A program made the position numbers and the translations under genes. The notes under the pieces were generated by a model that saw only the letters and a program-made list of their open reading frames with translations, made no database searches and had not been told where the DNA came from. Below are positions 48,908 through 64,000 of a stretch of 64,000 nucleotides of DNA, one piece after another; positions within the stretch are counted from its first letter, which is position 1; every line of letters starts with the position of its first letter. The stretch comes from a virus, in the IMG/VR virus record IMGVR_UViG_3300043411_001575, positions 32,001-96,000 of that record. One strand, 5' to 3'.

Positions 48908-48917
48908 AAACAAAACA

Positions 48918-49070: not shown

Positions 49071-49091
49071 GAAAAAGAGTTTTGAAATGTT

Positions 49092-49213: not shown

Positions 49214-49998
49214 TTAGTGCGGATTTGATTAACAAAATTCATAATGAAAACTGCCTTGAAACAATGGCGAAAATGCCTGATAATTTTATTGATTTAACTG
49301 TTACCTCACCGCCTTATGATGGATTAAGAACGTACAACGGTTATAGTTTTGATTTTGAAAGTGTCGCAAAAGAATTATACCGAGTTACTAAAGAGGGTGG
49401 TGTTGTAGTGTGGGTTGTGGGCGATGCAACAGTAAAAGGCAGTGAAAGTTTAACATCATTTAAACAAGCTATTTATTTCAAAGATATTGGGTTTTCTGTA
49501 GAAACTATGATTTATGAAAAGGCGCAATCTTGCTTTGGTAGTAACACCTATTATTTGCAGGCGTTTGAATATATGTTTGTTTTAACTAAAGGCACTAAAC
49601 CAAAAGCAATTAATCATTTACGTGACCGCAGAAATGAGCGTAGTGGCGTTGAGAGTATGGGAAAAGGAGGCTTAAATAAAAACGGCACTAAAACAGACAG
49701 GCATAAAAAAGAAATGCTCGAATATGGTAAGCGAAAAAATATATGGAAATACGGAGTGGGTGGAGGCAAGACGGGACATCCTGCGGTATTTCCTGAACAG
49801 CTCGCAAACGACCATATAATTTCGTGGAGCAATGAAAACGATATTGTTTACGATTGCTTTAGCGGAAGCGGAACAACTGCTAAAATGAGTATAATTAATA
49901 GCAGGCGATGGATAGCGTCTGAAATGAGTGCTGAATATTGCGATATTATAAAAGAACGTATTAAAGTAGATAAAGGTCTTTTTGAAAACGTATCGTAG
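49162..49998 (+). CDS. N4-cytosine/N6 DNA methyltransferase
   Basis: TSPPY, HPAVFP, YDCFSGSGTT. Confidence 0.92.
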   Translation: MNTDINENPKSCQTSVMVSADLINKIHNENCLETMAKMPDNFIDLTVTSPPYDGLRTYNGYSFDFESVAKELYRVTKEGGVVVWVVGDATVKGSESLTSFKQAIYFKDIGFSVETMIYEKAQSCFGSNTYYLQAFEYMFVLTKGTKPKAINHLRDRRNERSGVESMGKGGLNKNGTKTDRHKKEMLEYGKRKNIWKYGVGGGKTGHPAVFPEQLANDHIISWSNENDIVYDCFSGSGTTAKMSIINSRRWIASEMSAEYCDIIKERIKVDKGLFENVS

Positions 49999-50004
49999 CA
50001 TTAA

Positions 50005-50099
50005 CCATAACGGATGGTGCTATGAGCAGGTTTGCCTTGTAGAAATGTTCAAGTTACCGAAAATGTTATTGGCAAACTTGCTTATAGCACGTGTTATAC
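50005..50099 (+). repeat. attC-like hairpin 5
   Basis: GTGCTATGAGCAGGTTTGCC/GGCAAACTTGCTTATAGCAC. Confidence 0.85.
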
Positions 50100-50156
50100 G
50101 CTGGCACGGTAAATTCAGCAGAAACTTAATTTGAAAAACTAAAAGAAAAAATAAAA

Positions 50157-50735
50157 ATGAGCAAAGGAGATTTTACAACATTAGGAGCATCAGCACACTC
50201 AAAAGAAGAGCGTGAAGAAAATGACTTTTATGCAACAGACCCAAAAGCATTAGAGATATTCCTTGAACAAACAGGGATTGAATTGCGAAACGTATGGGAA
50301 TGTGCTTGTGGAGAAGGGCATTTGGCAAAAGTATTAGATGCAAGAGGATTGCTTGGAAGAGCAAGTGATTTGATTGATAGAGGTTATGGAATAACGGAGA
50401 GTAATTTCTACTACTTTTCTGAAATATGGGAAGGAGATATATTAACAAATCCACCATACGGAGATGCTATGAAATTTTGCCAACACGCTCTTGATTGTGT
50501 GGATGAAGGAAGTAAAGTAGTGATGCTTATGCGTATTCAATTCTTAGAAGGGCAAAGACGTAAACCTTTTCTTTTGAAAAACCCGCCAAAGTATGTTTAT
50601 GTTAGCAGTAGCCGATTGTTACTCGCTAAAAACGCAGACTTTGTAAAGTACAACACACCTTCCGCTAATTGCTATGCGTGGTATGTTTGGGAAAAAGGAT
50701 TTAAAGGCGAAACTACTTTACGTTGGTTTAATTAA
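50157..50735 (+). CDS. compact N6-adenine DNA methyltransferase
   Basis: DFYATDP, WECACGEG, ILTNPPY, YAWYVW. Confidence 0.9.
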   Translation: MSKGDFTTLGASAHSKEEREENDFYATDPKALEIFLEQTGIELRNVWECACGEGHLAKVLDARGLLGRASDLIDRGYGITESNFYYFSEIWEGDILTNPPYGDAMKFCQHALDCVDEGSKVVMLMRIQFLEGQRRKPFLLKNPPKYVYVSSSRLLLAKNADFVKYNTPSANCYAWYVWEKGFKGETTLRWFN

Positions 50736-50804
50736 AAAGTGCGTGGGAAGATTTTTATTTTTTCTCTCACAAATGTTGAATCGAAGAACGAATGTAGTGC
50801 TTGC

Positions 50805-50937
50805 GTATAACGGCATCGGGCTTTGTGTCCGTTGGCGACTTAACCCACCAATGTTAAATTAAAAAACGAAACTTGATATGAGTACAAATGATGAATTGAA
50901 AAACGAAACCGCCAATGGCACAAAACCCGTGTTATCG
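50805..50937 (+). repeat. attC-like hairpin 6 (contains ORF start)
   Basis: CGGGCTTTGTGTCCGTTGGCG/CGCCAATGGCACAAAACCCG. Confidence 0.85.
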
Positions 50938-51150
50938 GCTGGTTGGATTTCTGTAAAAGAGCAATTACCTGAATATTGGAGTCAACACCGAAATGATTAT
51001 GGAAGTGGTTACGTTCTTGGTTATACTAAATATGGTGAATGGGAAATAACTCAACTTTGGAATAATAAAGATTGGGAAGGTGATGATGACAATGAAGGTG
51101 ATTATATTACTCATTGGATGCCGTTGACCGTTCCACCAACTTGCCGATAA
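50878..51150 (+). CDS. DUF551 family protein
   Basis: WISVKEQLP...ITHWMPL..PP. Confidence 0.85.
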   Translation: MSTNDELKNETANGTKPVLSAGWISVKEQLPEYWSQHRNDYGSGYVLGYTKYGEWEITQLWNNKDWEGDDDNEGDYITHWMPLTVPPTCR

Positions 51151-51280
51151 CGTATCGTGGCTTTGTTGTCGTTGTGGCTATTTAAGACCAAACTTAACAA
51201 ATAATAACTAAAAATTAAATTTATGACTGAACTTTCAAAAAATGCCCAAGTGCCACAATGCGACAAAACCGCTGTTAGTG
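51145..51280 (+). repeat. attC-like hairpin 7 (contains ORF start)
   Basis: GGCTTTGTTGTCGTTGTGGC/GCCACAATGCGACAAAACC. Confidence 0.85.
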
Positions 51281-51621
51281 GCTGTGTTTTAGGATTACCT
51301 GAAATTGGAAAAACATATAATTGCTTTGATGATGGGAAAATAAGTAAAAGTAGAATGTATCAAGTTACAATAAGTGAAATAATCCCATTTGAAAAAGCCG
51401 ATAATGAATTGTTAGAATTATGGGAAGAAGAAGGATTACCGAGTTATTGGTTGTTTGAAAAAACAGATTATTTCATAAAATTTAAAAGTACAGAATTTAA
51501 AGACGAACCAAACGGAGTTTTTGCAAGAACTAAAAACGGTGGTTGGTTTGGTTTAGGGAACTATTGGAATAGTGGTAGATTAGATGTTGACGGCTCTTTA
51601 ACGCAAAGCTTGTCAACATAG
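51223..51621 (+). CDS. cassette hypothetical protein
   Basis: ORF crossing GTT junction at 51274. Confidence 0.75.
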   Translation: MTELSKNAQVPQCDKTAVSGCVLGLPEIGKTYNCFDDGKISKSRMYQVTISEIIPFEKADNELLELWEEEGLPSYWLFEKTDYFIKFKSTEFKDEPNGVFARTKNGGWFGLGNYWNSGRLDVDGSLTQSLST

Positions 51622-51622
51622 C

Positions 51623-51685
51623 CACTAACGGCATCCGTATAAGGGAAGTGCGAGGAACGAGCATTTACTTTATACGGTGTTAGCA
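51623..51685 (+). repeat. attC-like hairpin 8
   Basis: CCGTATAAGG/TTTATACGG. Confidence 0.8.
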
Positions 51686-51850
51686 AAGTGCGTTGGGCTG
51701 TGTGTTGGCTCGTTCCAAAACCATTTATTTTCTTTTTTTTGGGGAGGTTTTGAAAACTTTTTTACTAAAATACTTGCTAAATGACAATTTATATTTATCT
51801 TTGAACCATATTAACAATTAAAAAATAAAAACAATTAAAAAATAAAAACA

Positions 51851-52036
51851 ATGACAAAATTCGGAACAACAACTTGCCAATTTTACAACGGAACAGATTC
51901 AGTAACCGTAAATTCATCACTATTCAGAACCATTAGAGGTTGGGCTTCTACTGGTATTCCAAAAGATGCTATTAAAGGGGGAAGAAAGGTTTACGTTGCT
52001 AAAACAACTCTTGAACGCATTAAAAAAATTGCTTAA
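51851..52036 (+). CDS. cassette hypothetical protein
   Basis: ORF after cassette promoter 51771. Confidence 0.7.
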   Translation: MTKFGTTTCQFYNGTDSVTVNSSLFRTIRGWASTGIPKDAIKGGRKVYVAKTTLERIKKIA

Positions 52037-52221
52037 TGAGAATTTCTGTAACTGATTATGCAAAACAGCTTGGTGTAACTCGTCAAGCTGTTTTGTTACA
52101 GATTAAAGAAAAAAGGTTGCCTAATAATGTTAAGTCTGAAAAAATTGGCAACACTTACTCTTTAACTGTGGGTGGGCAAAAAAAGAATAAAAATGCTTCC
52201 AATAAACTACAATCGAAGTAG
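52036..52221 (+). CDS. small HTH DNA-binding protein, copy 2
   Basis: SVTDYAKQLGVTRQAV. Confidence 0.85.
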   Translation: MRISVTDYAKQLGVTRQAVLLQIKEKRLPNNVKSEKIGNTYSLTVGGQKKNKNASNKLQSK

Positions 52222-52236
52222 TATCGTAGCAATGGG

Positions 52237-52362
52237 GCATAACGGTTTCGGGCTTGGCGAAGTGGCTGAACTCGAAGCTAAATAGGATTACTAAACTTTA
52301 AAATTAAAAACGAATGTTAGATAGAATTACTGAACAGCCATTTTGCCAAACCCGTGTTATGT
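52237..52362 (+). repeat. attC-like hairpin 9 (near-identical to 12; contains MTase start)
   Basis: GGGCTTGGCGAAGTGGCTG/CAGCCATTTTGCCAAACCC. Confidence 0.85.
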
Positions 52363-53135
52363 GCAGGGCGGTTGATAATCTTGAACTCCTTTTGTCGCAG
52401 CCTGATGAAAGTGTAGATTTGATTTATTGCGATATACTTTACGGAACAGGTAGAAATTTCAGTGAATATCAGGACTTGAAACCAATTAGAAGTGAGATTG
52501 AAAGCCACTACCTACCACGTTTTATCGAAATGAAACGAGTCTTAAAACAAAGCGGCACTATATACATTCATACGGGAGTAAACACTTCCCATTGGATTAG
52601 AAGTTTAATGGATGATGTTTTTGGGTATAATAATTTTCAAAATGAAATTATATGGTACTACAAAAATTCCGCATTGAAAGCTAAGTCAAATAAATTTAGG
52701 CAGAATACAGATACTATACTTTACTATGTAAAAGAAAAGGGTAAACATATTTGGAATGATGTTTACGAAAAGTGTAAACCTTATAAAAACTCAAAGCATA
52801 AATTTAATCCAATAACAAAAAAAGCTGAAAGGCAGAGAAATGAAAGTGGTAGAATTGAATACTTTATGGTAGATGAAAGGAAGTGCGATAACCTAATTCA
52901 GATAAATGCTTTAAATAGTAGTGAAAAGGTTGGTTACCCTACTCAAAAACCAAAGGAACTAATAAGCCGTTTTGTTTTAGCTTCTACGAATGAAGGGGAT
53001 GTAGTGGCTGATTATTATTTAGGTAGTGGCACAACCGCAGTAGTTTGTAAAGAACTAAACCGAAATTTTATAGGTTGCGACATTAATCCAAAGGCTATTG
53101 AAATAACAAATGCTCGTTTAGATGCAGTTTCGTAG
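52314..53135 (+). CDS. N6/N4 DNA methyltransferase (atypical DILY motif IV)
   Basis: VDLIYCDILY, FQNEIIW, YPTQKP, DYYLGSGTT. Confidence 0.88.
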   Translation: MLDRITEQPFCQTRVMCRAVDNLELLLSQPDESVDLIYCDILYGTGRNFSEYQDLKPIRSEIESHYLPRFIEMKRVLKQSGTIYIHTGVNTSHWIRSLMDDVFGYNNFQNEIIWYYKNSALKAKSNKFRQNTDTILYYVKEKGKHIWNDVYEKCKPYKNSKHKFNPITKKAERQRNESGRIEYFMVDERKCDNLIQINALNSSEKVGYPTQKPKELISRFVLASTNEGDVVADYYLGSGTTAVVCKELNRNFIGCDINPKAIEITNARLDAVS

Positions 53136-53141
53136 CCTTGC

Positions 53142-53272
53142 GCATAACGGTCGAGTATTGGCGAAGAAGCGGATTTATACCACCAAAGCCGATACGAAGC
53201 ACTACACTTGATTGACCTACAAATGTTCATACGAAGCACCGAAACCGCTTTTTTGCCAATACTTTGTTAGTG
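53142..53272 (+). repeat. attC-like hairpin 10
   Basis: AGTATTGGCGAAGAAGCGG/CCGCTTTTTTGCCAATACT. Confidence 0.85.
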
Positions 53273-53412
53273 GCTGATGCGGATTTTTAGCACTCATTTT
53301 TAGTCAGTTAGAAAATATTTTGAAAATAGTTGAAAATAAATTTGGTTTGTATTGTTTTTGTATATACATTTGCATTACAATAATTAAGTAAAACAATTTA
53401 AAAACAAACAAA

Positions 53413-53820
53413 ATGGAAAAGCAAGTAAAAACAAACACATTGATAGCTGAATTTATGGGCTATGAAACTATCCCTTATAATGGAAACAAAAATGTTCCAA
53501 TTTATAATGGCAATAAGTATGCTAAAACAGTAGGTGAACAAAAAGCCTTATGGGGTGGATTAGATTTACAATTCACTGGAAGGTTTACGGAAAGAGTAAA
53601 CTACCCATTTGATACAGACTTTAATTATTTAATACCTGTTATTAAAAGAATAGAAGAGCAAGGGTATGTAGTAGCTATTAAAGGTATAAGCTACCAAGTT
53701 TATAAAGTTATGGATGAACAAAACCCTATTATAAGTTTAGTTTGTGGGGATTTATCTAAAAAAACAGAAATGACTTGTGATTTAGTTACATCGTTTATTG
53801 AACAACTTAATAATAACTAA
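53413..53820 (+). CDS. cassette hypothetical phage protein
   Basis: NTLIAEFMG...L.PV..RIE; own TACATTTG promoter. Confidence 0.75.
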   Translation: MEKQVKTNTLIAEFMGYETIPYNGNKNVPIYNGNKYAKTVGEQKALWGGLDLQFTGRFTERVNYPFDTDFNYLIPVIKRIEEQGYVVAIKGISYQVYKVMDEQNPIISLVCGDLSKKTEMTCDLVTSFIEQLNNN

Positions 53821-53822
53821 TT

Positions 53823-54038
53823 ATGACTATCAAAAAATTTGACTACTCGAAAAGCACGGAGGATATATTTTACAAAATAATTTATCCTATTTATGCAAAG
53901 GAATTTTTATATGGCAATAGCTATGAAAACTTTGCTTTTACTGTATCAGCCAACTTTATATTAAACGCTCCGCAATGGGAATACATTTTGGAACATTGGG
54001 AACAAAAGGAAAGCATTTTAACATACGAAACCAAGTAA
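53823..54038 (+). CDS. cassette hypothetical protein
   Basis: ORF in cassette 53266-54226. Confidence 0.65.
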   Translation: MTIKKFDYSKSTEDIFYKIIYPIYAKEFLYGNSYENFAFTVSANFILNAPQWEYILEHWEQKESILTYETK

Positions 54039-54039
54039 T

Positions 54040-54207
54040 ATGGAAAAGAAAAAACGAGATATAAGCCTACCTAAAAGGTTTAATTCAGAAGATGTAAAGA
54101 AGTGGCAAGAACAAGCCAATTTAACAACTGGTGGTAATCTTACCCTATGGATGGAAAACGCTTTAAATAACGCTGTAAAGAAGCAGAATGTCAAATCGAA
54201 GCAGTAA
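54040..54207 (+). CDS. small ribbon-helix-helix-like protein (55 aa)
   Basis: RF.SED..KW.EQA....GGNLT.WMENALN; last gene of a promoter-bearing cassette. Confidence 0.6.
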   Translation: MEKKKRDISLPKRFNSEDVKKWQEQANLTTGGNLTLWMENALNNAVKKQNVKSKQ

Positions 54208-54219
54208 TGTAGCATTTGC

Positions 54220-54313
54220 CACTAACGGTTTGGTGTATGAGAAGGTTTGCTTAACTGAACTTTCAAATTACCACTAAACTTTATAACAAACTTTCTTATA
54301 CACCTTGTTATAC
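54220..54313 (+). repeat. attC-like hairpin 11
   Basis: GGTGTATGAGAAGGTTTG/CAAACTTTCTTATACACC. Confidence 0.85.
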
Positions 54314-54422
54314 ACAGTACGGTTTATTAAGGTAAAATGTTAATACGAAGAACAGATAAAAACTTTTTAAAAATGTGCGATGGAAAAATTAATTTCAAAT
54401 ATTTATATATAAAGATAAAACT

Positions 54423-54728
54423 ATGAGCAAAGAAATGAGAAAATACATAGACACATTCAAAGGTAGAATGTTAAAAGAAAATGTTGAAGTTAATCAACAG
54501 AAATCAATTCAACATATCATCAATAATGAAATAGTTGATAGATTTGATACTGGCAATGTTTCAATTACAACTGCTATTGAAGCAGTTAAAATAGCATATC
54601 AAGAAATTATTGATATGATTGAATTGAACTTTGAAACTGCTGGTGAATTAGGTGGTGGAATAACAGAAGCACAATCTATAATTAACAGAATTGAAGAATT
54701 TAAAAAAAGAGCGAAGGAGAATTTTTAA
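54423..54728 (+). CDS. cassette hypothetical protein
   Basis: ORF in cassette 54307-54781. Confidence 0.75.
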   Translation: MSKEMRKYIDTFKGRMLKENVEVNQQKSIQHIINNEIVDRFDTGNVSITTAIEAVKIAYQEIIDMIELNFETAGELGGGITEAQSIINRIEEFKKRAKENF

Positions 54729-54774
54729 AAGGTTTTTACACAGAACTATGATTGAAACATGAATGTAGTATTGT

Positions 54775-54900
54775 GTATAACGGTTTTGGGCTTGGCGAAG
54801 TGGCTGAACCCGATGCTAAATAGAATTACTAAACTTTAAAATTAAAAACGAATGATTGATAGAATTACCGAACAGCCATTTTGCCAAACCCGTGTTAGTG
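54775..54900 (+). repeat. attC-like hairpin 12 (contains MTase start)
   Basis: Same stem and loop as hairpin 9. Confidence 0.85.
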
Positions 54901-55619
54901 GCAGTACTTTTGTGAACGCTGATTGCTTTGATGTTTTTCCTTTTATTGAGGATAAATCAATAGATGCTATTATTTGCGACCTGCCTTATGGAACGACTAT
55001 TTTGAATTGGGATAAAATTTTACCTATTACAGAATTATGGAAACATTATAATCGTATTTTAAAAGATAATGGAGTGGTAGTTTTGTTTGGTGCTGAACCA
55101 TTTTCGACTATGTTAAGAAGTAGTAATATTTTGAATTATAAATATGATTGGATTTGGCAAAAAACAAGACCTTCATTATTCCAACACGCAAACAAAAGAC
55201 CAATGAAAGACCACGAAAATATTATGGTATTTTATAAAAAGCAGCCGACTTACAACCAAGAACTAAAAGAACTTGAAAAGCCAAATAAAAGATGGCGAAA
55301 AAATAAAATGGGTGCTTTTTTAGAAAATGGTTGCAATGATATTGAAAGCAAACAAACCAAGACAGGATTTAATAGGCAAATTTTAACCTATGCAATGCAC
55401 AATGTAGGAATGGAACATAAAACACAAAAGCCGATTGAACTTTTGGAATACCTTGTAAAAACATACACCAACGAAAACGATATGGTTTTAGACAATACAA
55501 TGGGTTCTGGAACAACAAATTTGGCTTGTATCAAATTAAATCGCAAGTCAATAGGAATAGAAAAGGAAAAACAATATTACGATGTCGCTGTTCGGCGTGC
55601 TTTGGAGTATTGCCACTAA
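54852..55619 (+). CDS. N6/N4 DNA methyltransferase, paralog of 45818
   Basis: DLPYG, HKTQKP, VLDNTMGSGTT; ends nearly identical to 45818. Confidence 0.92.
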   Translation: MIDRITEQPFCQTRVSGSTFVNADCFDVFPFIEDKSIDAIICDLPYGTTILNWDKILPITELWKHYNRILKDNGVVVLFGAEPFSTMLRSSNILNYKYDWIWQKTRPSLFQHANKRPMKDHENIMVFYKKQPTYNQELKELEKPNKRWRKNKMGAFLENGCNDIESKQTKTGFNRQILTYAMHNVGMEHKTQKPIELLEYLVKTYTNENDMVLDNTMGSGTTNLACIKLNRKSIGIEKEKQYYDVAVRRALEYCH

Positions 55620-56005
55620 CGGTGTGGGCTATGAGAAGTAAAACCCCTTTTTGTGCGGTGGATTTTGTAAATTTGTAATTATTAACTAAAACCTTTCGGA
55701 GTATAGGCAACCGAGTAAATGTTATGGCAAAAAAATATCTTATCAAATCGTGGAAAACAAATTCTGCATTTACAAAAACAGGAAAGTTTTATCAAAAACC
55801 ATTGGAAACAGATAGTAAATCAGAAGCTAATGAAATAGCCAAAGATTTGATTAAAAAACACAAAGTATATGCTGTTGAAATAGCAGTTTTTGATGAAAAA
55901 GCTAATGGATATACAAGAGCCGAATTGATTGGCAACTTTCCAAACAAAAAGTAGTTTTTACAGGTGCTGTGGCAGGGGTTTTATTTCTTATAGCCCCTGT
56001 TATGG
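55614..56005 (+). repeat. attC-like hairpin 13 with a gene in its loop
   Basis: GGGCTATGAGAAGTAAAACCCC...GGGGTTTTATTTCTTATAGCCC. Confidence 0.8.
55724..55954 (+). CDS. hypothetical protein nested in attC-like loop
   Basis: ORF with TAAATTTG promoter-like box upstream. Confidence 0.75.
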   Translation: MAKKYLIKSWKTNSAFTKTGKFYQKPLETDSKSEANEIAKDLIKKHKVYAVEIAVFDEKANGYTRAELIGNFPNKK

Positions 56006-56020
56006 CATCGTTTTAATGTG

Positions 56021-56116
56021 CCATAACGGCTCTAATAAACACAGTGCAGCGACCTACTGCACTTTAATAGCAGACGAAACGCCAACTCGCTGCATTGGGT
56101 TTATTTATTGTTGGCA
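56021..56116 (+). repeat. attC-like hairpin 14
   Basis: ATAAACACAGTGCAGCGA/TCGCTGCATTGGGTTTAT. Confidence 0.8.
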
Positions 56117-56129
56117 AATTCGTTCATAA

Positions 56130-56312
56130 ATGGAATTAACAGTAAAACAGATTCAAGAAAAGCAAAAGCAGCTTAAACGAGAGCTGCGTGACAAACTCAA
56201 CCAATTTGAGCAAGAAACAGGATTGAAAGTAACGGGCGAAATTCATTATGGATATACAGAAGAAAAAGACCAACATTGGTTGAGTTTAAAGTACTCGAAC
56301 CCATTTATGTAA
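56130..56312 (+). CDS. cassette hypothetical protein
   Basis: Flanked by GTTGGCAAA/TTTGCCAAC. Confidence 0.75.
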   Translation: MELTVKQIQEKQKQLKRELRDKLNQFEQETGLKVTGEIHYGYTEEKDQHWLSLKYSNPFM

Positions 56313-56316
56313 TGTT

Positions 56317-56449
56317 TGCCAACGGTTGAGGCTAACCGCACGTAGCGGAATTTGAAACACTTAATTATCAAAATATGACAGACTTAAATACAAGCACCGA
56401 AGTAACGCAACCCACTGAACCCGCTATTGCGGTTGAGCCTGTGTTAGCA
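56317..56449 (+). repeat. attC-like hairpin 15 (contains ORF start)
   Basis: AGGCTAACCGCACGTAGCGG/CCGCTATTGCGGTTGAGCCT. Confidence 0.85.
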
Positions 56450-56677
56450 CCAGTATTTGTTTATGAATTTCTTTATAATTCTGATTGTTGCGAAGGTGCA
56501 GCATCAACTGTAAGCATTCACAAAACAAAGAAAGGTGCTGAAATGGCAATGGAGTTTCATAAAAACGAAAAACTAAAAGAGTGGGAAAAAGAATGCAAAG
56601 AATATCCACCTACAAAAGAATATCCGTTTGATTTTGACCAATGGTGGGGAGTTCGTGAATGCGAGTTGCTTCCTTAA
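56375..56677 (+). CDS. cassette hypothetical protein
   Basis: ORF crossing GTT junction at 56443. Confidence 0.75.
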   Translation: MTDLNTSTEVTQPTEPAIAVEPVLAPVFVYEFLYNSDCCEGAASTVSIHKTKKGAEMAMEFHKNEKLKEWEKECKEYPPTKEYPFDFDQWWGVRECELLP

Positions 56678-56683
56678 TATTGG

Positions 56684-56749
56684 TGCTAACGTTTACGGCT
56701 ATATTCTCGTGCCGTTTTTCACGGCATGGAATTATAGCCGATGTTATGC
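56684..56749 (+). repeat. attC-like hairpin 16
   Basis: Identical stem to hairpin 3. Confidence 0.85.
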
Positions 56750-56903
56750 AAGTGCGTTGGCTTGTGGGTGGCACGTTTCAAAACTCTTTTTCTTATTTTT
56801 TTTAGAGAGGGATTTTTTTATTTTCTTTATTACTTGCTAATTGACAATTTATGTTTATCTTTGTAGCAGATAATTAATACTAACAATTTAAAATCAAAAC
56901 AAA

Positions 56904-57188
56904 ATGAGCAAAGCAGGATTAACAAAATTTTTAGCAAAGTTCCCAGATGACACTAAAAGCTGGGCTAAAGCAACAGATGAAGTTCGTGATATTGCACGAA
57001 CAGCAAAAGAATATTACAATGAAATAGAAGGCAAAGATATTCAACCTTGCGATTTCCGTTCAATGAAAACGCCTTCCGAATGGAACACAAAAGGTAAAAG
57101 CTACATTTTTAAAGTGTATGATAAAATGAGTGCAAAAACAAAAACAGAGTTTAACGGCTATTTGAAAAGCCACTTTAATATTAAATAA
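56904..57188 (+). CDS. cassette hypothetical protein
   Basis: ORF after cassette promoter 56831. Confidence 0.75.
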   Translation: MSKAGLTKFLAKFPDDTKSWAKATDEVRDIARTAKEYYNEIEGKDIQPCDFRSMKTPSEWNTKGKSYIFKVYDKMSAKTKTEFNGYLKSHFNIK

Positions 57189-57189
57189 A

Positions 57190-57348
57190 ATGGAGCAACT
57201 ATCTGTAACCGATTATGCAAAATTGCTTGGCGTAACTCGTCAGGCGATTTTGTTACAGATTAAAGAAAAAAGGTTGCCGAAAAATGTTACAGCAAAAAAA
57301 ATCGGGAACACTTATCTACTATCTGTGCGTAGGCAAAAAAGAAAATAA
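57190..57348 (+). CDS. small HTH DNA-binding protein, copy 3 (52 aa)
   Basis: MEQLSVTDYAKLLGVTRQAIL. Confidence 0.85.
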   Translation: MEQLSVTDYAKLLGVTRQAILLQIKEKRLPKNVTAKKIGNTYLLSVRRQKRK

Positions 57349-57474
57349 ATGGTTTTGGAATGTTTGCTAACGGTGTGGGCTATGAGAAGTAAAACCCCTT
57401 TTTGTGCGGTGGATTTTGTAAATTTGTAATTATTAACTAAAACCTTTCGGAGTATAGGAAACCGAAATAAAGTT

Positions 57475-57720
57475 ATGGCAAAATCAGTAGCAATTTTTCA
57501 AGAAAAATCATCTAAAACAGGAAGTTTTATTGGTGATAAAATTTATTATTACAAAACAAAAAATCCTAATTGGTGGTTTGTTTCAGTTGGCAAAGCATAT
57601 TTAGGGACTGTGCCTGAATACGGAAGCGGAACAGGGCAATTTAAAAACAAGAAACAATACCCGACTATTGCTTCATTGGAAAAATACCACAAAGAAGATA
57701 ATATTCACAGAGTAGATTAA
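57475..57720 (+). CDS. hypothetical protein
   Basis: ORF followed by terminator. Confidence 0.75.
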   Translation: MAKSVAIFQEKSSKTGSFIGDKIYYYKTKNPNWWFVSVGKAYLGTVPEYGSGTGQFKNKKQYPTIASLEKYHKEDNIHRVD

Positions 57721-57730
57721 TGTTATTTAT

Positions 57731-57765
57731 GTAGTGGCTATGCCTTATTGTAGCCACTACTTTTT
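57731..57765 (+). terminator. intrinsic terminator
   Basis: GTAGTGGCTA-loop-TAGCCACTAC TTTTT. Confidence 0.8.
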
Positions 57766-57833
57766 AATCTTTTCACAGTTTTGAAAAAACTGAAAGAGTG
57801 CGTGGGCTTTTTCTTTTTTAATAATTTAATTGC

Positions 57834-57926
57834 CACTAACGTTGAAGGGCTTGGCGAAGGTGGGCTTGTAGGATGCTCAATTTTAGCAGAATGTTTCTGC
57901 CCACTTTTGCCAAACCCGTGTTATAT
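57834..57926 (+). repeat. attC-like hairpin 18
   Basis: GGGCTTGGCGAAGGTGGGC/GCCCACTTTTGCCAAACCC. Confidence 0.85.
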
Positions 57927-57996
57927 GAAGTGCCGACTTATTTACGTTGAAGCCAAATTGGAACACTAAACAGAAAAACAAAAAGAAAAAAAAGGG

Positions 57997-58809
57997 ATGG
58001 AATTAAATAAAATACATTTAGGAGATTGTTTAGAAGTAATGAAAACTTTGCCAAATGAAAGCATTGATTGTATTGTTACTTCACCGCCATATTGGTTACA
58101 AAGAGATTACGGATGGGATGGACAATGGGGTATGGAAGAAACGTTTTATGAGTATTTGGATAAATTGTTTTTAATGATGGATGAAGCAAAACGAATATTG
58201 AAAAACGATGGAACTATTTTTGTAAATATTGGCGATGGCTATGCAAGAACAGGTGGAAAATCATTAGGTAAAAAACAACCAAACGCTTTATTGTATGCAA
58301 CACAAGAAGGGATAAGGGGCGGAAATAACAAGGGAGTTGCAGGAATACAAGATAAAACATTACTACAAATACCATATCGTTTTTCTATTGGCTGTATTGA
58401 TAGAGGATGGATTTTGCGAAACAATATAATTTGGTTTAAAAGAAACGCAATGCCCGAAAGTGTAAAGGACAGATTTACAAAATCACACGAAGTAATATTT
58501 ATGTTTTCTAAAAACAAAGAATACTTTTTTGACGAAAAATTTGTAACACAAGATGTTTGGGATATTCCTTTAACTCCTAACGGCACAAAACATATAGCAT
58601 CTTACAATACTGATTTAATTGGCAGACCTATTGTTTGCGGTTGCAGAAAGGGTGGAATAGTATTAGATATGTTTTGCGGAGCAGGAACAACAGGAATAAG
58701 AGCATTAGAACTTGGGAGAAACTTTATAGGGATAGATGGTAAAAAGGAATACGTTGATATGGCACAACAAAGAATTAATGATATTGTATCACAACCACAA
58801 TTATTTTAA
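57997..58809 (+). CDS. N4-cytosine DNA methyltransferase
   Basis: TSPPY, NIGD.Y, W.K.NAMPESVKDR, VLDMFCGAGTT. Confidence 0.92.
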   Translation: MELNKIHLGDCLEVMKTLPNESIDCIVTSPPYWLQRDYGWDGQWGMEETFYEYLDKLFLMMDEAKRILKNDGTIFVNIGDGYARTGGKSLGKKQPNALLYATQEGIRGGNNKGVAGIQDKTLLQIPYRFSIGCIDRGWILRNNIIWFKRNAMPESVKDRFTKSHEVIFMFSKNKEYFFDEKFVTQDVWDIPLTPNGTKHIASYNTDLIGRPIVCGCRKGGIVLDMFCGAGTTGIRALELGRNFIGIDGKKEYVDMAQQRINDIVSQPQLF

Positions 58810-58881
58810 AAGTGCGGTGGCTTTTTTCTTTTTGTTTTTCCTTCACGGAACTTCAATTGGAAACGGTCAGCAAGGCATTTC

Positions 58882-58949
58882 ATATAACGACCGTGTGTTT
58901 ATGTCAGGTTTTGCTTTTCGCAAAACTTGCATTAAACACAATGTTAGCA
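58882..58949 (+). repeat. attC-like hairpin 19
   Basis: TGTGTTTATGTCAGGTTTTGC/GCAAAACTTGCATTAAACACA. Confidence 0.85.
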
Positions 58950-59059
58950 AAGTGCGTTGGCTTGTGGGTGGCTCGTTGTATTTAATAAAAAAGAAAAAAA
59001 GGAAGGCGTGTGTTGGCTATTTTAATTTGTAAATTTGTATAAACATAAATCATATAAAA

Positions 59060-59896
59060 ATGAGTAGATATAATAATAGTGGAGATATTGAAGAAGTTTT
59101 ACCGAAAGAGGTATTACAGAAAATAAAAGACAAATTCAAAGCAAAGAGTTTTAAAAAACTTGGTTCAGGTAGATATGGAAGTGCTTTTAAAATAAGTCCA
59201 AAAAAGGTTTTGAAAATCACAAAAGATTTGAAAGAGTATGAATATGCTAAAAAAATTGAAGGACTGAAAAATAAACATATTGCTGATGTTTATGAAACAT
59301 ATCACTTTGAATATGGCGACACAAAGTATGCTGTAATAATTAAAGAATATTGCAATATTGGAGAAGCATATTTTGATAAACTAATAGATAGTTTTGCTGA
59401 ATACACGGGAAACGAAATGTCATTATCATTTGTTTCATCTGAATTTTTGCACGGAGATTTATCAAAGGCGGTTTTTGATAACTACTTTAAAAAGTATAAG
59501 CAAAATCAAGGTTACGCAACAGGATTTGCAGATGATTGGCAAGAAATGATAATGGAATTAAAGAACAAAAAAATCTATGTTAAAGATTTTAACGGTGCTA
59601 ATATTGGAACGAAGCCGAGTAATAATAACATCTGCATCATTGAACTTGGATTAGGTTATTGGGAAACCATAAAATTACCTGATGCAGACAAAATAATATT
59701 AAAGGAAGGTGGAACTATAATTGGAAATTTTGAACCGCTTGGCTCTGCAAAAGAATTAGGAATTAAACCGAAGATTGAGGGACACGATATGATTGCCATT
59801 TGTGATTGTGGAGAAAAATTTAGTTACCAAAACTCAAAGAAGAATATTGTTTGGGAATGTCCTGAATGTAAAAGAAGAAATAAGATTGTAGAATGA
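59060..59896 (+). CDS. protein-kinase-like enzyme with C-terminal Zn ribbon
   Basis: LGSGRYGSAF, VLKIT, KDFNGANIG, IELG; CDCG...CPEC. Confidence 0.8.
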   Translation: MSRYNNSGDIEEVLPKEVLQKIKDKFKAKSFKKLGSGRYGSAFKISPKKVLKITKDLKEYEYAKKIEGLKNKHIADVYETYHFEYGDTKYAVIIKEYCNIGEAYFDKLIDSFAEYTGNEMSLSFVSSEFLHGDLSKAVFDNYFKKYKQNQGYATGFADDWQEMIMELKNKKIYVKDFNGANIGTKPSNNNICIIELGLGYWETIKLPDADKIILKEGGTIIGNFEPLGSAKELGIKPKIEGHDMIAICDCGEKFSYQNSKKNIVWECPECKRRNKIVE

Positions 59897-59969
59897 TTTT
59901 AAACCTTTTCACAATTTTGAAAAAATTGAAGGGAGCGTGGGCTTTTTCTTTTTTATTAAATACAATGTT

Positions 59970-60299
59970 TGCTAACGCATATCGGCTAAACGCAGTATTT
60001 AAAAACTTTTGCGAGGGAAATTCGTAAATTTGACAATTATAAACAATTAAAAAACAAAACAAAATGGCAACAGAAAAAAAGTATGCGGTTTTCGCTACAT
60101 TCAAAACAACAGGTAGAGAAAGTGAAATGACACTACCTATGACAAAAAAAGAAGCTGAAAAGGCTTTATCTGCTTTAAAGGAAAAATCAGCCGAGTTCAA
60201 AAAATTGAACTTTAAAGGATTTAAGATAAAGGCAGTTTAATTATCTCATTAGTGCGGTGGGAAAGTTTTTAAATATTGTCGTTTTAGCCGTTGTTATGC
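59970..60299 (+). repeat. attC-like hairpin 20 with gene in loop
   Basis: CGGCTAAACGCAGTATTTAAAAACTTT...AAAGTTTTTAAATATTGTCGTTTTAGCCG. Confidence 0.8.
60064..60240 (+). CDS. hypothetical protein nested in attC-like loop (58 aa)
   Basis: MATEKKYAVF...KIKAV; TAAATTTG upstream. Confidence 0.7.
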   Translation: MATEKKYAVFATFKTTGRESEMTLPMTKKEAEKALSALKEKSAEFKKLNFKGFKIKAV

Positions 60300-60357
60300 G
60301 AAGGTGTGGCAATTCCAAAATTTCAAATTATAGACAAAACTTTCTTGCCACACTTTT

Positions 60358-60488
60358 GCATAACGTTCCGAGTATTGGAGCAGTGCGGATTTAAACCACA
60401 AATGTTGATATAAAAAATGAAACTTAAATAAACCGATAACCTTTATTAGAAGCACTAAACCCGCATTGCTTACAATACTGTGTTATAG
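60358..60488 (+). repeat. attC-like hairpin 21
   Basis: AGTATTGGAGCAGTGCGG/CCGCATTGCTTACAATACT. Confidence 0.85.
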
Positions 60489-60540
60489 GGAGTGTTTTTA
60501 AAATTTTAGCGGGGATAATTACTAAATTTACAATAAAAAA

Positions 60541-60930
60541 ATGTCAGCAAAATCATATCAAGCACCTGCCAATAAAAAAGTTTATAGAGCAGAAAAAAAA
60601 GGAGTAAAAGGAAACTGGTTTGCATTAAGTAAAGATGATGCAATAGGTTACGGAAATTTTGGTTACAAAATTGTTTCAAAATCAATAGGAGGCAAGAAGT
60701 TTTTATATGCTTCTGAATTAGAAGATGGCGGAACTTATTTTGATACCATAATCAAAAAATTCCCTAAACTTTTCAAAATAAATAAAGGTATTTTATGGAA
60801 TGACTATGAATTGAAAGTATCTCCAAGTGAACTATGGAGAGAGTGTGAAGCATTTTTAAAAAAAGAAGGTTATTCTGGAATATTTACAGGGAAGAAACTT
60901 TCTATTGATTATGAACTTTTTTTGTTTTAG
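60541..60930 (+). CDS. cassette hypothetical protein, possibly ADP-ribosyltransferase-like
   Basis: VYR...GNWFA.....A..Y...GYSGI pattern; weak. Confidence 0.55.
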   Translation: MSAKSYQAPANKKVYRAEKKGVKGNWFALSKDDAIGYGNFGYKIVSKSIGGKKFLYASELEDGGTYFDTIIKKFPKLFKINKGILWNDYELKVSPSELWRECEAFLKKEGYSGIFTGKKLSIDYELFLF

Positions 60931-60959
60931 GTGCGTGGGAAAAATTTTAAAAACATTTG

Positions 60960-61306
60960 CTATAACGTATATCGGCTAAATGCAGTATTTAAAAACTTTT
61001 GCGTGGGAATTTAATTCGTAAATTTGATAATTATAAACCAATAAAAAACAAAATAAAATGGCACAAACAAAAAAAGAGAAACGAGTAATTGCAAGAGCAA
61101 GATACATCGTTGAAGTATTCGCAAAAAGTCATTATGATTCAAGAGATTTGTTTAAGAAAATGACTAAAGAAGAAAAGAAAATAACCATTGATTACATCGA
61201 GAGAATTGGCGAAAGTGCCGTTAGTAGGTATTTATATCAATGGTATTAATTCTCTCATTAGTGCGGTGGGAAAGTTTTTAAATATTGAGTTTAGCCGTTG
61301 TTATGC
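60960..61306 (+). repeat. attC-like hairpin 22 with gene in loop
   Basis: Same arms as hairpin 20, different gene. Confidence 0.8.
61058..61249 (+). CDS. hypothetical protein nested in attC-like loop
   Basis: ORF. Confidence 0.7.
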   Translation: MAQTKKEKRVIARARYIVEVFAKSHYDSRDLFKKMTKEEKKITIDYIERIGESAVSRYLYQWY

Positions 61307-61364
61307 GAAGGTGTGGCAACTGCAAAATTTCAAATTATAGACAAAACTTTCTTGCCACACTTTT

Positions 61365-61432
61365 GCATAACGTTTTGCAGCTAAACGCTGATTTTGTTCT
61401 TCACAAAATTTGCGATTTAGGTGCTGTTACCT
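61365..61432 (+). repeat. attC-like hairpin 23
   Basis: GCAGCTAAACGCTGATTTTGT/ACAAAATTTGCGATTTAGGTGC. Confidence 0.8.
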
Positions 61433-61602
61433 GCTGATGCGGTTTCATAGTACAAATGCTGATTTGGAACATAAAACTAAGGGTTTAATTTTTTTCTTTT
61501 TTTTAGTGGAGGAAAACTTTTTCTTTTTTACTTGCTAATTGACAATTTATGTTTATCTTTGTAGCATATAATTTAACAATAACAATTTAAAACAAAAACA
61601 AA

Positions 61603-61896
61603 ATGGCTGACATCGCATTACCAAAATCAAACCTTTACCTTGAAGGTAGCGGACTTGACACAAACGGAAACAAAGTTGTAAAACTTGGAATTTCAAGTTT
61701 ACCGAAAAACTTTAGTATTCAAACTAATGGCAATTTGCCGAAAACTGGAAGTATCCTTCGTGGCTTGAAAACCAAAAAGGATATGGAAAGCGTGAGTAAA
61801 TCCGATTTGCAAATAATTTCAAAAGAAGTTGTTGCATACATTAAGGAGTTTGGCTCAAAACTGCAAAGAGAAAAATTAAGAACTTACAACTCTTAA
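61603..61896 (+). CDS. cassette hypothetical protein
   Basis: ORF after cassette promoter 61529. Confidence 0.75.
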   Translation: MADIALPKSNLYLEGSGLDTNGNKVVKLGISSLPKNFSIQTNGNLPKTGSILRGLKTKKDMESVSKSDLQIISKEVVAYIKEFGSKLQREKLRTYNS

Positions 61897-61898
61897 TT

Positions 61899-62063
61899 AT
61901 GGAGCAACTATCTGTAACCGATTATGCAAAATTGCTTGGTGTAACTCGCCAAGCAATTTTGTTACAGATAAAAGAAAAAAGGTTGCCGAAAAATGTTACA
62001 GTTAAAAAAATTGGTAATACTTACTCCTTATCTGTGCGTGGGCAAAAAAAAGAAAAAAAATAA
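61899..62063 (+). CDS. small HTH DNA-binding protein, copy 4 (54 aa)
   Basis: MEQLSVTDYAKLLGVTRQAIL. Confidence 0.85.
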   Translation: MEQLSVTDYAKLLGVTRQAILLQIKEKRLPKNVTVKKIGNTYSLSVRGQKKEKK

Positions 62064-62113
62064 ACCCGACTTCTACCACAAATGTTCATTCGGAGCAACA
62101 AAGTAGCATTTGC

Positions 62114-62188
62114 AGGTAACGGACGAGGCTATGAGCAGTTGAGCGTAGCCTGTGCGATGGAAAGAATTGCTTATAGCCTGTGTTATGC
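62114..62188 (+). repeat. attC-like hairpin 24 (loop holds an empty GTGCGATGG site)
   Basis: AGGCTATGAGCAGTT/AATTGCTTATAGCCT. Confidence 0.85.
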
Positions 62189-62277
62189 AAGTGCGTTGGC
62201 TTGTGGGTGGCTCGTTTCAAAACTCTTTTTCTTATTTTTTAGGGAGGGATTTTTATTTTCTTTTTTAACAACAAAAA

Positions 62278-62484
62278 ATGGCTGATTCAATCGGTGGCTT
62301 AGAAGGCACAAAAACTAAATTTTTCATAGATGTAAAAGTTCCTATCAGAGCAGGGATGGAGTTTGGCACAAAGAATTATAAAATAAGAACAATCGGATAT
62401 GAGGTTTTTCGACAATACTTTGATACTAAAGAAAAGGATATGCAAGTAGGTAGGCAAAGAATTGAAAGAAAAATAAATAACTAA
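62278..62484 (+). CDS. cassette hypothetical protein
   Basis: ORF inserted ahead of cassette promoter. Confidence 0.6.
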   Translation: MADSIGGLEGTKTKFFIDVKVPIRAGMEFGTKNYKIRTIGYEVFRQYFDTKEKDMQVGRQRIERKINN

Positions 62485-62562
62485 CTTTTACTTGCTAATT
62501 GACAAATTATGTTTATCTTTGTAGCAGATAATTTAATATTAACAATTTAAAAACAAAACAAA

Positions 62563-62733
62563 ATGGCAAAAAGTAGTTATTACAAGTACGCAGTTGTAGC
62601 GGTAAACACAAAAACAGGTGAAGAAAGTTTAGTATGCAAAGTTCGTGCTGCTGGGGACTTAAACAACATTTTACACGGATTAGAAAAAGCAGTAGGAAGC
62701 TCTCCTATTAAATACAAATCTAAAAAACTGTAA
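62563..62733 (+). CDS. cassette hypothetical protein (56 aa)
   Basis: MAKSSYYKYAVV...; after promoter 62489. Confidence 0.7.
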   Translation: MAKSSYYKYAVVAVNTKTGEESLVCKVRAAGDLNNILHGLEKAVGSSPIKYKSKKL

Positions 62734-62735
62734 AA

Positions 62736-62957
62736 ATGGAACTATCTGTAACAGAATATGCAAAATCGCTTGGCGTAACTCGTCAGGCGATTTTGTTACA
62801 GATTAAGGAAAAAAGGTTGCCTAAAAATGTTACGGTTAAAAAAATTGGTAATACTTATTCTTTATCTGTGCGAGGGCAAAAAAAAAATAAGAAAAAGAGT
62901 TTTGAAATGTTGCATAACGTTATCAGGCTTGGCGAAGTGCCGCTACTCGAAACTTAA
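62736..62957 (+). CDS. small HTH DNA-binding protein, copy 5 (reads through into next hairpin)
   Basis: MELSVTEYAKSLGVTRQAIL; longer A tract shifts the stop out of frame. Confidence 0.85.
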   Translation: MELSVTEYAKSLGVTRQAILLQIKEKRLPKNVTVKKIGNTYSLSVRGQKKNKKKSFEMLHNVIRLGEVPLLET

Positions 62958-63006
62958 ATTTTAGCACTAAACTATCCTGCGGCATTTTGCCAAACCCGTG
63001 TTATGG
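62912..63006 (+). repeat. attC-like hairpin 25
   Basis: GGCTTGGCGAAGTGCCGC/GCGGCATTTTGCCAAACC. Confidence 0.85.
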
Positions 63007-63051
63007 GATAGTTTTAAAAACCTTTTAGGGTGGGCATTAAAAAACGAAATA

Positions 63052-63510
63052 ATGATAATAGCAATTGATTTTGACGGAACTTGCGTAACACACGAATTTC
63101 CCAAAGTGGGCAAAGACATTGGTGCTGTGCCTGTATTGAAAGAGTTGGTTAAAAATAACCACCAATTAGTTTTGTTTACAATGAGAAGTGATATAGTTAA
63201 TCCAACTGGCGAGGATAACGAATTGCACCTTGAAAGTGGGAACTATTTAACTGATGCAATTGAATGGTTTAAACAAAACGAAATACCGCTTTATGGAATA
63301 CAAACCAACCCGACACAGCACACTTGGACTACAAGCCCAAAAGCATACGCACAACTTTACATTGATGATGCTGCTTTAGGTTGCCCACTTTTGGTTGACA
63401 TTGTAAAAGATGGTGACGAAAGCATTAAGCAAGTTGGACGACCTTATGTTAATTGGGAGAAGGTAAAAGAAATGCTAATTGATAAAGGAATTATTGATGA
63501 TGAGGACTAA
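63052..63510 (+). CDS. HAD-superfamily phosphatase
   Basis: IAIDFDGT, LFTMR, K..A.LYIDD. Confidence 0.88.
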   Translation: MIIAIDFDGTCVTHEFPKVGKDIGAVPVLKELVKNNHQLVLFTMRSDIVNPTGEDNELHLESGNYLTDAIEWFKQNEIPLYGIQTNPTQHTWTTSPKAYAQLYIDDAALGCPLLVDIVKDGDESIKQVGRPYVNWEKVKEMLIDKGIIDDED

Positions 63511-63542
63511 CCCGTGCGGTGGGAAAAGGTTTTTAAAATTTC

Positions 63543-63908
63543 CCATAACGGTTCGTGGCTATAAGAAGTAAAACCCATTTTTGAGCGGTGGAAAATTTCG
63601 TATCTTTGTAACGCAATATTGCAAATAAATATAATACTTTAAAAAATGGGAAAAAAAATTGCTTACGTTATTATGGGTGGCGATGATTATGTAACAGAAT
63701 CTTCATCATCAAGGAACAATGGATATGCTTTTACGCATAATCTACAAGGTGCAACTTTTTTTGATTCCAAAGAAAAAGCAGATAATTGTATTAAAAACAA
63801 AAATCTCGAATTTCATCTTGGAAGAAAAGTAAAAGCAAAAAAAGTTTCATTGGTTTAATCTAAGCGGTGCGTTGGCAGGGGTTTTATTTCTTATAGCCCC
63901 TGTTATAG
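63543..63908 (+). repeat. attC-like hairpin 26 with gene in loop
   Basis: Same arms as hairpin 13, different gene. Confidence 0.8.
63646..63858 (+). CDS. hypothetical protein nested in attC-like loop
   Basis: ORF; TATCTTTG upstream. Confidence 0.7.
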   Translation: MGKKIAYVIMGGDDYVTESSSSRNNGYAFTHNLQGATFFDSKEKADNCIKNKNLEFHLGRKVKAKKVSLV

Positions 63909-63923
63909 CATCGTTTTAATGTG

Positions 63924-64000
63924 CTATAACGGTTTGCGTATATGAGAAGTGGCACTTGCACGAACTTAAAATTTAGCACAAATGTTTCTGTGCCATTTCT
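63924..64000 (+). repeat. attC-like hairpin 27, truncated by window end
   Basis: AGAAGTGGCAC/GTGCCATTTCT. Confidence 0.75.

Follow-up and report, generated by a model that had tools for sequence, protein, structure and literature searches.

When an attC-like hairpin contains a gene between its arms, and is followed by a short stretch that contains none, which of these parts belong to the same cassette? The question is raised by an integron-like array in a 64 000-nucleotide (nt) stretch of viral DNA (the window; bases 32001–96000 of the 169,658-bp IMG/VR virus record IMGVR_UViG_3300043411_001575, G + C ∼30%). The array comprises ∼50 small units, all co-oriented, running from position 45777 of the window to window-equivalent position 83656, and its end is a TAAC at window-equivalent 83653–83656 (G000 115653–115656). 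Many units encode DNA methyltransferases, of the N6_N4, D12 and Dam kinds. They are separated by imperfect TAAC...GTT[AG] hairpins, and along the array the bases 3′ of each GTTA are complementary to those 5′ of the next TAAC (the chain rule). The array terminates in ...GCACATAAC↓ (the arrow marks a boundary or crossover throughout), followed by 46 nt and then the ATG of a tyrosine recombinase of 289 amino acids (aa), towards which the array genes point. Four of the hairpins contain a gene, and these are probably inside-out cassettes of a phage-borne, integron-like gene-shuffling system run by this small Xer-like enzyme.

A scan for TAAC...GTT[AG] with paired flanking arms located ∼44 sites in the array. 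Forty of the hairpins are 66–136 nt in length, and the four outliers are 330–392 nt. By the scan's own length measure the latter are 55617–56002 (392 nt, hairpin 13), 59973–60296 (330 nt, hairpin 20), 60963–61303 (347 nt, hairpin 22) and 63546–63905 (366 nt, hairpin 26). Within 55000–64000 the real sequence has four anchored hairpins of 200–700 nt with a score of at least 24 (the best being 32), while 12 shuffled versions have none (best 19.5). The elements of the four units, each with the gene-less stretch (mini-body) that follows its hairpin, and the array itself are:

55617–56027, + strand: candidate inside-out cassette A (hairpin 13); TAAC 55617–55620; left arm 55626–55648; TAnnTTTG box 55668–55675; open reading frame (ORF) 55724–55954 (76 aa); right arm 55974–55996; GTTA 55999–56002; mini-body 55999–56027 (29 bp, ends TAAC).
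59973–60364, + strand: candidate inside-out cassette B (hairpin 20); TAAC 59973–59976; left arm ∼59983–60009; TAAATTTG 60025–60032; ORF 60064–60240 (58 aa); G-rich motif 60252–60261; right arm ∼60264–60290; GTTA 60293; mini-body 60293–60364 (72 bp, its own 20-nt ends pair).
60963–61371, + strand: candidate inside-out cassette C (hairpin 22); TAAC 60963–60966; left arm 60973–60999; TAAATTTG 61019–61026; ORF 61058–61249 (63 aa); G-rich motif 61261–61270; right arm 61271–61297; GTTA 61300; mini-body 61300–61371 (72 bp).
63546–63930, + strand: candidate inside-out cassette D (hairpin 26); TAAC 63546–63549; left arm ∼63556–63577; TATCTTTG 63601–63608; ORF 63646–63858 (70 aa); G-rich motif 63867–63876; right arm 63877–63899; GTTA 63902; mini-body 63902–63930 (29 bp).
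45777–64000, + strand: in-window part of the integron-like array, which continues past the window end.

A first-pass annotation of this DNA had placed promoter-bearing genes between the arms of hairpins 13, 20, 22 and 26. The location of the genes is borne out. Each outlier hairpin contains one + strand ORF, of 58–76 aa, and all four have paired arms in the minimum-free-energy fold of the DNA (computed for the whole 324–386-nt stretch). The arms of hairpin 13 are also paired in the centroid fold (z = −2.4, none of 100 shuffles being equally stable). The promoters stand less firmly. A TAnnTTTG box is found 39–56 nt upstream of each enclosed ORF, and from its position a promoter for each loop gene is plausible; the motif by itself is not enriched in the window (123 observed versus 117.5 expected), and none of 59 loops matches the canonical Bacteroidota promoter (TTTG, 17–23 nt, TAnnTTTG). 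Five cargos of the window gave no usable Pfam or PHROG family, and in a tblastn search against the loci collected by then they matched only themselves. An origin of the long hairpins by deletion between two similar neighbouring hairpins was considered and rejected; their interiors contain no remnant arm and no GTTA/TAAC pair, and long hairpins containing an inner hairpin had been filtered out.

Hairpins 13 and 26 have common arms, as do hairpins 20 and 22, yet the proteins encoded within arm-sharing hairpins are mutually dissimilar (blastp, best E 0.26), just as the annotation had it. Each hairpin is followed by a gene-less stretch running from GTTA to TAAC, the ends of which pair. It is 29 bp at 55999–56027 and 63902–63930, and 72 bp at 60293–60364 and 61300–61371. 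The two 29-bp copies differ by a compensated change, ATGGCA/TGCCAT in one and ATAGCA/TGCTAT in the other, which had been taken as a sign of selection on pairing.

The wider comparison supports that reading. The 29-bp unit was searched for with free boxes, as GTTA-N5-TCGTTTTAATG-N5-TAAC. Of the 124 copies among the matches listed, 106 have 5-nt boxes that are complementary at every position, in at least 16 complementary versions. The hairpin arms behave likewise: in 50 cargo-bearing hairpins with distinct arms the mean score of an arm with its own partner is 24.1, against 6.9 for cross pairs. Pairing is thus under selection, and it is biased to the coding strand. At stem positions that are not Watson–Crick paired, the coding (+) strand has 76 G.T and 3 A.C oppositions, and it is the more stable strand in 41 of 44 array hairpins. 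In the DNA folds of the array the stems are uninterrupted, with G.T pairs and one C.A mismatch but no bulged bases; it is the spacer that makes the site asymmetric, being 5–6 nt after TAAC and 1–3 nt before GTTA. TAAC is invariant, and it is preceded by T at position −7 (T-N6-TAAC) in 44 of 44 sites.

These features suggest how such a cassette might be organized. On the coding strand the crossover would fall at the C of TAAC or one base 5′ of it. A cassette would then read imperfect hairpin, GTTA-N5..., body, ...N5′-TAAC. Once excised, the single coding strand would fold back into a long stem capped by loops at both ends. This stem would consist of the R box (N5′TAAC paired with GTTAN5), the asymmetric spacer (5–6 versus 1–3 nt) and the variable arms. 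In an ordinary cassette the gene would lie in the loop beyond the R box (the body), with a 20–90-nt loop beyond the arms. In an inside-out cassette the gene would instead lie beyond the arms, and the body would be reduced to an 11-nt or 32-nt loop closing the R-box stem. Bound to both halves, the Xer-like enzyme would carry out the exchange of a single strand where arm and spacer meet (TAAC↓), in the manner of IntI on attC or XerCD on the folded CTX-phi site. We infer that the DNA folds as a single strand, that circular intermediates are formed, and that genes have some route into the loops.

The array by itself fits a boundary at either TAAC↓ or G↓TTA, since the chain rule holds in both phases. 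The module boundary is nevertheless best placed at TAAC↓, on account of homology blocks, the geometry of recombinase and attI, the recurrence of units in other contexts, and the cultured Freya phages described below. A cassette would then read hairpin followed by GTTA-body-TAAC, and the gene-less stretch would be the vestigial body of the same cassette whose gene is in the loop. Thirty-two homology blocks within the array cover a hairpin; 15 of these extend >30 nt past GTTA, and one extends >30 nt upstream of TAAC. Blocks of 97–99% identity stop sharply at TAAC↓ (57763–57841 versus 80953–81031 is an example), and the recombinase gene and presumed attI sit just past a TAAC↓. In comparison loci from other phages and genomes (L-numbered contigs) whole units of hairpin, cargo and mini-body are found again in different surroundings, the homology being limited by TAAC↓ on both sides, in the pairs L074/L094 (93.5%), L082/L106, L028/L122 and L004/L082. 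Cassette A of the window recurs in contig L169 among unrelated flanks. The hairpins that follow the mini-units of the window head ordinary gene-bearing cassettes, for example:

56024–56321, + strand: ordinary cassette after A; hairpin 56024–56113; body GTTGGCAAA...TTTGCCAAC with ORF 56130–56312.

A protein search found that the relatives of the recombinase include the integrase of the Polaribacter phages Freya_1 to Freya_10 (L130–L139, accessions MT732463–MT732472; the set includes Freya_1, _2, _5, _6 and _10). The isolates have flanks that are 100% and 99.8% identical, and differ in a block of 0, 842, 1744, 2216 or 4942 bp, bounded on one side by ...GTTTACAAC↓ and on the other by attI, 48 nt ahead of the integrase ATG. 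Each block opens with a hairpin and closes with (C/T)AAC↓. The isolates share their distal cassettes and differ in those nearest the integrase, so that there is polymorphism of whole cassettes beside the integrase in cultured relatives. The block of Freya_2 comprises an ordinary cassette of 382 bp and a second one of 460 bp. The latter has an 85-aa ORF between its hairpin arms, and its self-pairing 61-bp mini-body adjoins attI directly with no further hairpin. If hairpin, cargo and mini-body form one cassette, the joint of the Freya circle would read ...GTTTACAA↓C followed by the left arm, while a boundary at G↓TTA would give a G↓TTG joint. The isolates are a ready experimental system, which the original paper does not present in this light, having taken the integrase only as a sign of a temperate lifestyle (PMC8776804).

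Comparison of scaffold copies reveals what is exchanged. In the window and other phages at least six different cargos accompany the hairpin-13 arms, and at least four the hairpin-20 arms with the 72-bp body; L010 and L011 have the scaffold of cassette B with other cargo. What the copies have in common is the arms, everything from just past the stop codon, and sometimes the promoter and leader through ATGGCA. Only the ORF differs. Arms and mini-body appear to constitute a reusable scaffold with an exchangeable ORF, in which case the conserved unit would be the scaffold and not a pair of gene and site. A homologue of cargo A (82% protein identity) is found at L167:2550-2783, in a different phage-like contig with NinG nearby. 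There it is an ordinary operon gene with a Shine–Dalgarno-like leader and no arms. At the nucleotide level the homology begins at about codon 5 and ends 12 nt beyond the stop codon, and the ORF alone is shared. This suggests that the bare ORF was recently transferred into or out of the cassette scaffold.

Gene-less copies of the scaffold also exist, about 10 of them distinct, with hairpins of 117–144 nt. The catalogue of cargo and empty forms in other genomes that the first-pass annotation had called for thus contains both the same arms with different cargo in other phages and forms that have no gene. Hairpin and mini-body may together be a gene-less reusable scaffold, into either loop of which a dedicated process loads single ORFs; this is a tentative proposal, possible rather than probable. 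The cargo-A family may show what a loading event looks like, with homology that starts near codon 5 inside a scaffold providing promoter, leader and ATGGCA. If there is such dedicated loading, the system would show how new cassettes originate, which is the chief step still unsolved in the biology of integrons, and it would in any case offer a concrete handle on how cassettes are made, with Freya_1 to Freya_10 as a cultured test bed.

A G-rich motif, G[TA]GCG(G/T)TGG, is also present in the array. The 170-kb record has 24 copies of it on the + strand, every one of them within the array, and a single copy on the − strand. It ranges from 48022 to 80988 in window coordinates (examples are 55653, 58812, 60252, 61261, 63514 and 63867). 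It is usually located just past a stop codon or a GTTA junction, and is often followed by a run of T or A. No hairpin partner was found for it. Direct-repeat-like copies of the motif lie on either side of the cargo in the hairpin-13 arm family, here and in at least 12 other loci, and 15 of 59 arm families have it in the 5′ part of the loop.

The design is general, and in other Bacteroidota phages it is met with dozens of different genes. The 29-bp unit is present in at least 119 IMG/VR viral contigs, and in 27 contigs of a species-genome collection, mostly from Bacteroidota. Among the IMG/VR matches listed, 87 of the 124 copies have a paired TAAC...GTTA hairpin directly upstream. Twenty-two of these hairpins are of ordinary length and contain no gene, while 65 are 191–1612 nt in length and nearly all contain a + strand ORF; the ORFs in hairpins preceding the 29-bp units encode 39–308 aa. 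The species-genome collection gives the same upstream-hairpin design in 17 of 19 cases. Isolate contigs are represented, by L157 (Lutibacter holmesii CCUG 62221, a 365-kb contig) and L164 (Roseivirga spongicola, a 250-kb contig), both of them large; such cassettes are therefore not confined to free phage genomes but are also carried by bacterial chromosomes or prophages. Among the genes in loops elsewhere are methyltransferases of the Dam, MT-A70, C5 and N6_N4 families and one for a Mom-like protein. The loop cargo examined, in the window and at other loci, encodes no transposase, reverse transcriptase or nuclease.

The association of long loop and mini-body is not an ascertainment effect. Considering hairpins from the same loci that were not found through the 29-bp pattern, short hairpins are followed by no mini-bodies and 122 long bodies, and long hairpins by five mini-bodies and six longer ones (Fisher p = 1.4e-6). 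Four of these six 'long' bodies are only 106–110 nt. As a rule, then, a cassette has a single cargo, located in one loop or the other. The earlier claim that both classes of hairpin can carry cargo, unlike those of a classical integron, therefore holds, with a gene found in either stem-loop class. A tally of breakpoints around the pattern-found units was dominated by the 29-bp pattern itself and was not used as evidence.

The recombinase has as its best model XerA_Arch (206 bits, cut-off 220). Against the integron-integrase model TIGR02249 it scores 155 bits (cut-off 265), with a match split into two stretches. In comparison with structures in the PDB it matches XerA (4a8e) with 155 bits in one stretch, and IntI4 (2a3v) with 99 bits in two. 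Since the integron-integrase models match below cut-off and in two pieces, the enzyme appears to lack the IntI-specific insertion, and from its sequence is evidently Xer-like (nearest to XerA/XerD) and not an IntI.

Other partitions and other functions of the hairpins have to be weighed against the inside-out cassette. The first-pass annotation had adopted crossovers at G↓TTA as in a classical integron, such that the gene-bearing hairpin is the attC of the upstream cassette, and the mini-unit with the next hairpin is a separate empty cassette. The 29-bp and 72-bp stretches are where it placed them, with ends that pair, and the array alone is compatible with its phase. Some homology blocks also begin at ↓GTTA. 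However, ties of a hairpin to the downstream body outnumber those to the upstream gene by 15 to 1, and right arm and mini-unit are co-inherited with homology that ends at TAAC↓. Moreover, the Freya_2 mini-body adjoins attI with no hairpin thereafter, and it is at the TAAC↓ end that recombinase and attI are found. A separate empty cassette is therefore quite unlikely. It is highly improbable, in turn, that the arms act in RNA, as processing or stabilizing stems in read-through transcripts comparable to the RNase III stems that bracket rRNAs, with TAAC and GTTA incidental. The coding-strand bias (76 G.T(U) versus 3 A.C) is what RNA stems would give, and in many compact loops elsewhere the ORF starts immediately past the left arm and has its stop codon within the right one, which would give one transcript with both arms. 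In the units of the window, by contrast, the TAnnTTTG box is inside the loop, downstream of the left arm, and the loop gene's own transcript would therefore be without that arm. Nor would RNA stems account for TAAC and T-N6-TAAC being invariant in 44 of 44 sites, or for module boundaries exactly at TAAC↓. Rfam gave no family match, the sole hit being a sub-threshold sRNA inside a helix-turn-helix gene. RNA and DNA roles of the arms are not mutually exclusive.

The cargo could also have arrived independently of the hairpins, if the loops were invaded by a second mobile promoter–gene module (moron-like, edged by the G-rich motif GTGCGGTGG / GCGGTGCGTGGCA) and the hairpins are dead recombination sites. 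The bracketing of cargo in the hairpin-13 family, here and in at least 12 loci, and the confinement of the motif to the array (24 to 1 by strand over 170 kb) would fit this, and an orphan left arm at 57367 shows that decay occurs. Yet the arms of 50 cargo-bearing families are kept complementary by compensatory change, and whole units move as cassettes. Most arm families do not have the motif (it is in the 5′ loop part of 15 of 59), and the cargo has no transposase, reverse transcriptase or nuclease. As a general explanation this is unlikely, although insertion of a second mobile module may explain the loading of one arm family. Chance inverted repeats or mis-assembly can be excluded. The array is repeat-rich, but the 12 shuffles gave no comparable hairpin, and the architecture is present in >100 independent contigs and in cultured, circularly closed phage genomes.

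Several observations weigh against the inside-out cassette itself. Some homology blocks begin exactly at ↓GTTA (45887...) and 17 blocks are hairpin-only, so that GTTA is sometimes also a module boundary; in addition, the same arms are met with differing R boxes. Some use of the other strand, or else ordinary homologous exchange, is therefore likely. The coding-strand G.T bias fits the folding of RNA as well as that of single-stranded DNA, and a loop of 330–390 nt should fold less readily than a short one. Excision of the cassettes is deduced from sequence comparison. The Freya recombinase is only 31% identical to that of the array, and the Freya evidence is therefore one of architecture; in addition cassettes 1 and 2 of Freya are gained or lost together, so that of the two boundaries of the inside-out unit Freya fixes just the right-hand one.

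The putative system has much in common with classical integrons (class 1 and the Vibrio superintegron). These too are arrays of single-gene cassettes with imperfect hairpins having ...AAC/GTT... cores, of which one strand is favoured, and a cassette opens with bases that are complementary to its own inverse core. The recombinase gene is beside the insertion site, and once the array is flipped the hairpin is at the recombinase-distal end of the cassette. In the Freya series the newest cassettes adjoin the recombinase; for the window phage this is a matter of geometry only. There are clear differences, however. The recombinase is XerA/XerD-like without the IntI insertion, and the hairpins have no bulged (extrahelical) bases, the asymmetry being in the spacer. 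The R box is 9–20 bp with an invariant T-N6-TAAC. The genes are on the folding strand and point to the recombinase, and the hairpin consequently precedes its gene. While an integron cassette is a promoterless gene followed by attC and expressed from Pc, the hairpin here is tied to the downstream gene and TAnnTTTG boxes precede the ORFs by 30–56 nt. Lastly, the loops hold start codons, promoters or whole genes of up to ∼300 aa.

In integron theory the attC loop is a short dispensable spacer and the gene lies outside the site; here whole genes, including anti-restriction methyltransferases, would be inside the folded site, and a recombination site would tolerate loops of 0.2–1.3 kb. attC sites are usually shorter than ∼150 bp, ranging from roughly 57 to 141 bp with a short terminal loop. 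The four gene-bearing sites of 330–392 nt are outside this usual length, unlike the other 40 of 66–136 nt. Sites of 330–390 nt are unlikely to fit attC models built on ordinary lengths, and standard attC finders probably miss such cassettes.

Other known systems share single aspects. At the CTX-phi attP hairpin the host XerCD acts on a folded single strand, at one site, to integrate a whole phage. A Xer-type enzyme would likewise act here on a one-strand hairpin by single-strand exchange, but it is a dedicated phage enzyme, with dozens of sites that bound cassettes. The 5′ strand of the site (an R arm of ∼11 nt, a 5–6-nt spacer, then the arm) may resemble a dif-type layout. The PeSL of T4-type phages are promoter/stem-loop cassettes thought to act via homologous recombination. 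They too are small accessory genes with their own promoters, shuffled between phages via repeated flanking elements, but without TAAC/GTTA cores, a chain rule or an adjacent recombinase.

A review of integrons mentions only short ORFs within attC (PMC8876359). IS1111-attC elements and group IIC-attC introns insert into attC, the inserted gene being their own transposase or reverse transcriptase (PMC3001079). In those elements also a gene ends up between the two halves of attC; here the genes between the arms instead encode methyltransferases or a Mom-like protein, or are unrelated small ORFs, and covariation of the arms continues. Using attC models, Qi et al. (2023, PMC9892861) found clusters of attC sites lacking an integrase (CALINs), with 2–3 attC-like sites per virulent phage. 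Polaribacter phage P12002L has two methyltransferase cassettes, and one phage attC-like site was recombined by IntI1 (same study, PMC9892861). The array resembles these CALINs in having attC-like sites between methyltransferase genes in phages of Flavobacteriia, but that work gives no dedicated recombinase, long arrays or gene-bearing hairpins (PMC9892861). A search of the literature turned up no publication that describes long phage arrays having a Xer-like recombinase, or hairpins with genes inside them.

The neighbourhood of cassette A includes a damaged copy:

57371–57840, + strand: degenerate relative of A; left arm, promoter region and ATGGCAAAA (57367–57483) 96% identical to 55616–55732.

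This relative has a different ORF (57475–57720, 81 aa) and no right arm, and there is no GTTA before the next TAAC (57837). The chain rule is broken over 56743–57840. Here GTTATGCAA at 56743 is unmatched by the next TAAC box (TTTGCTAAC, 57363–57371), and the unmatched TAAC in the region of 57371 is followed by the orphan hairpin-13 left arm without a right arm. The whole looks like a fused or decayed cassette.

A helix-turn-helix gene encoding 52–73 aa is present in seven copies inside the array, with 82–90% nucleotide identity. Five are in the window (48906–49076, 52036–52198, 57190–57348, 61899–62063 and 62736–62957) and the others are at window-equivalent positions 71410–71584 and 79220–79394. 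Each copy sits behind a small promoter-driven ORF, and the sole family match is a weak one in PHROG. The product could be an excisionase-like accessory factor or a regulator.

Within 56317–56677, ORF 56375–56677 begins in a hairpin loop (the site running from CAAC 56318 to GTTA 56445) and runs on through the right arm, past the GTTA junction and into the body. In this way loops also provide start codons to ordinary cassettes.

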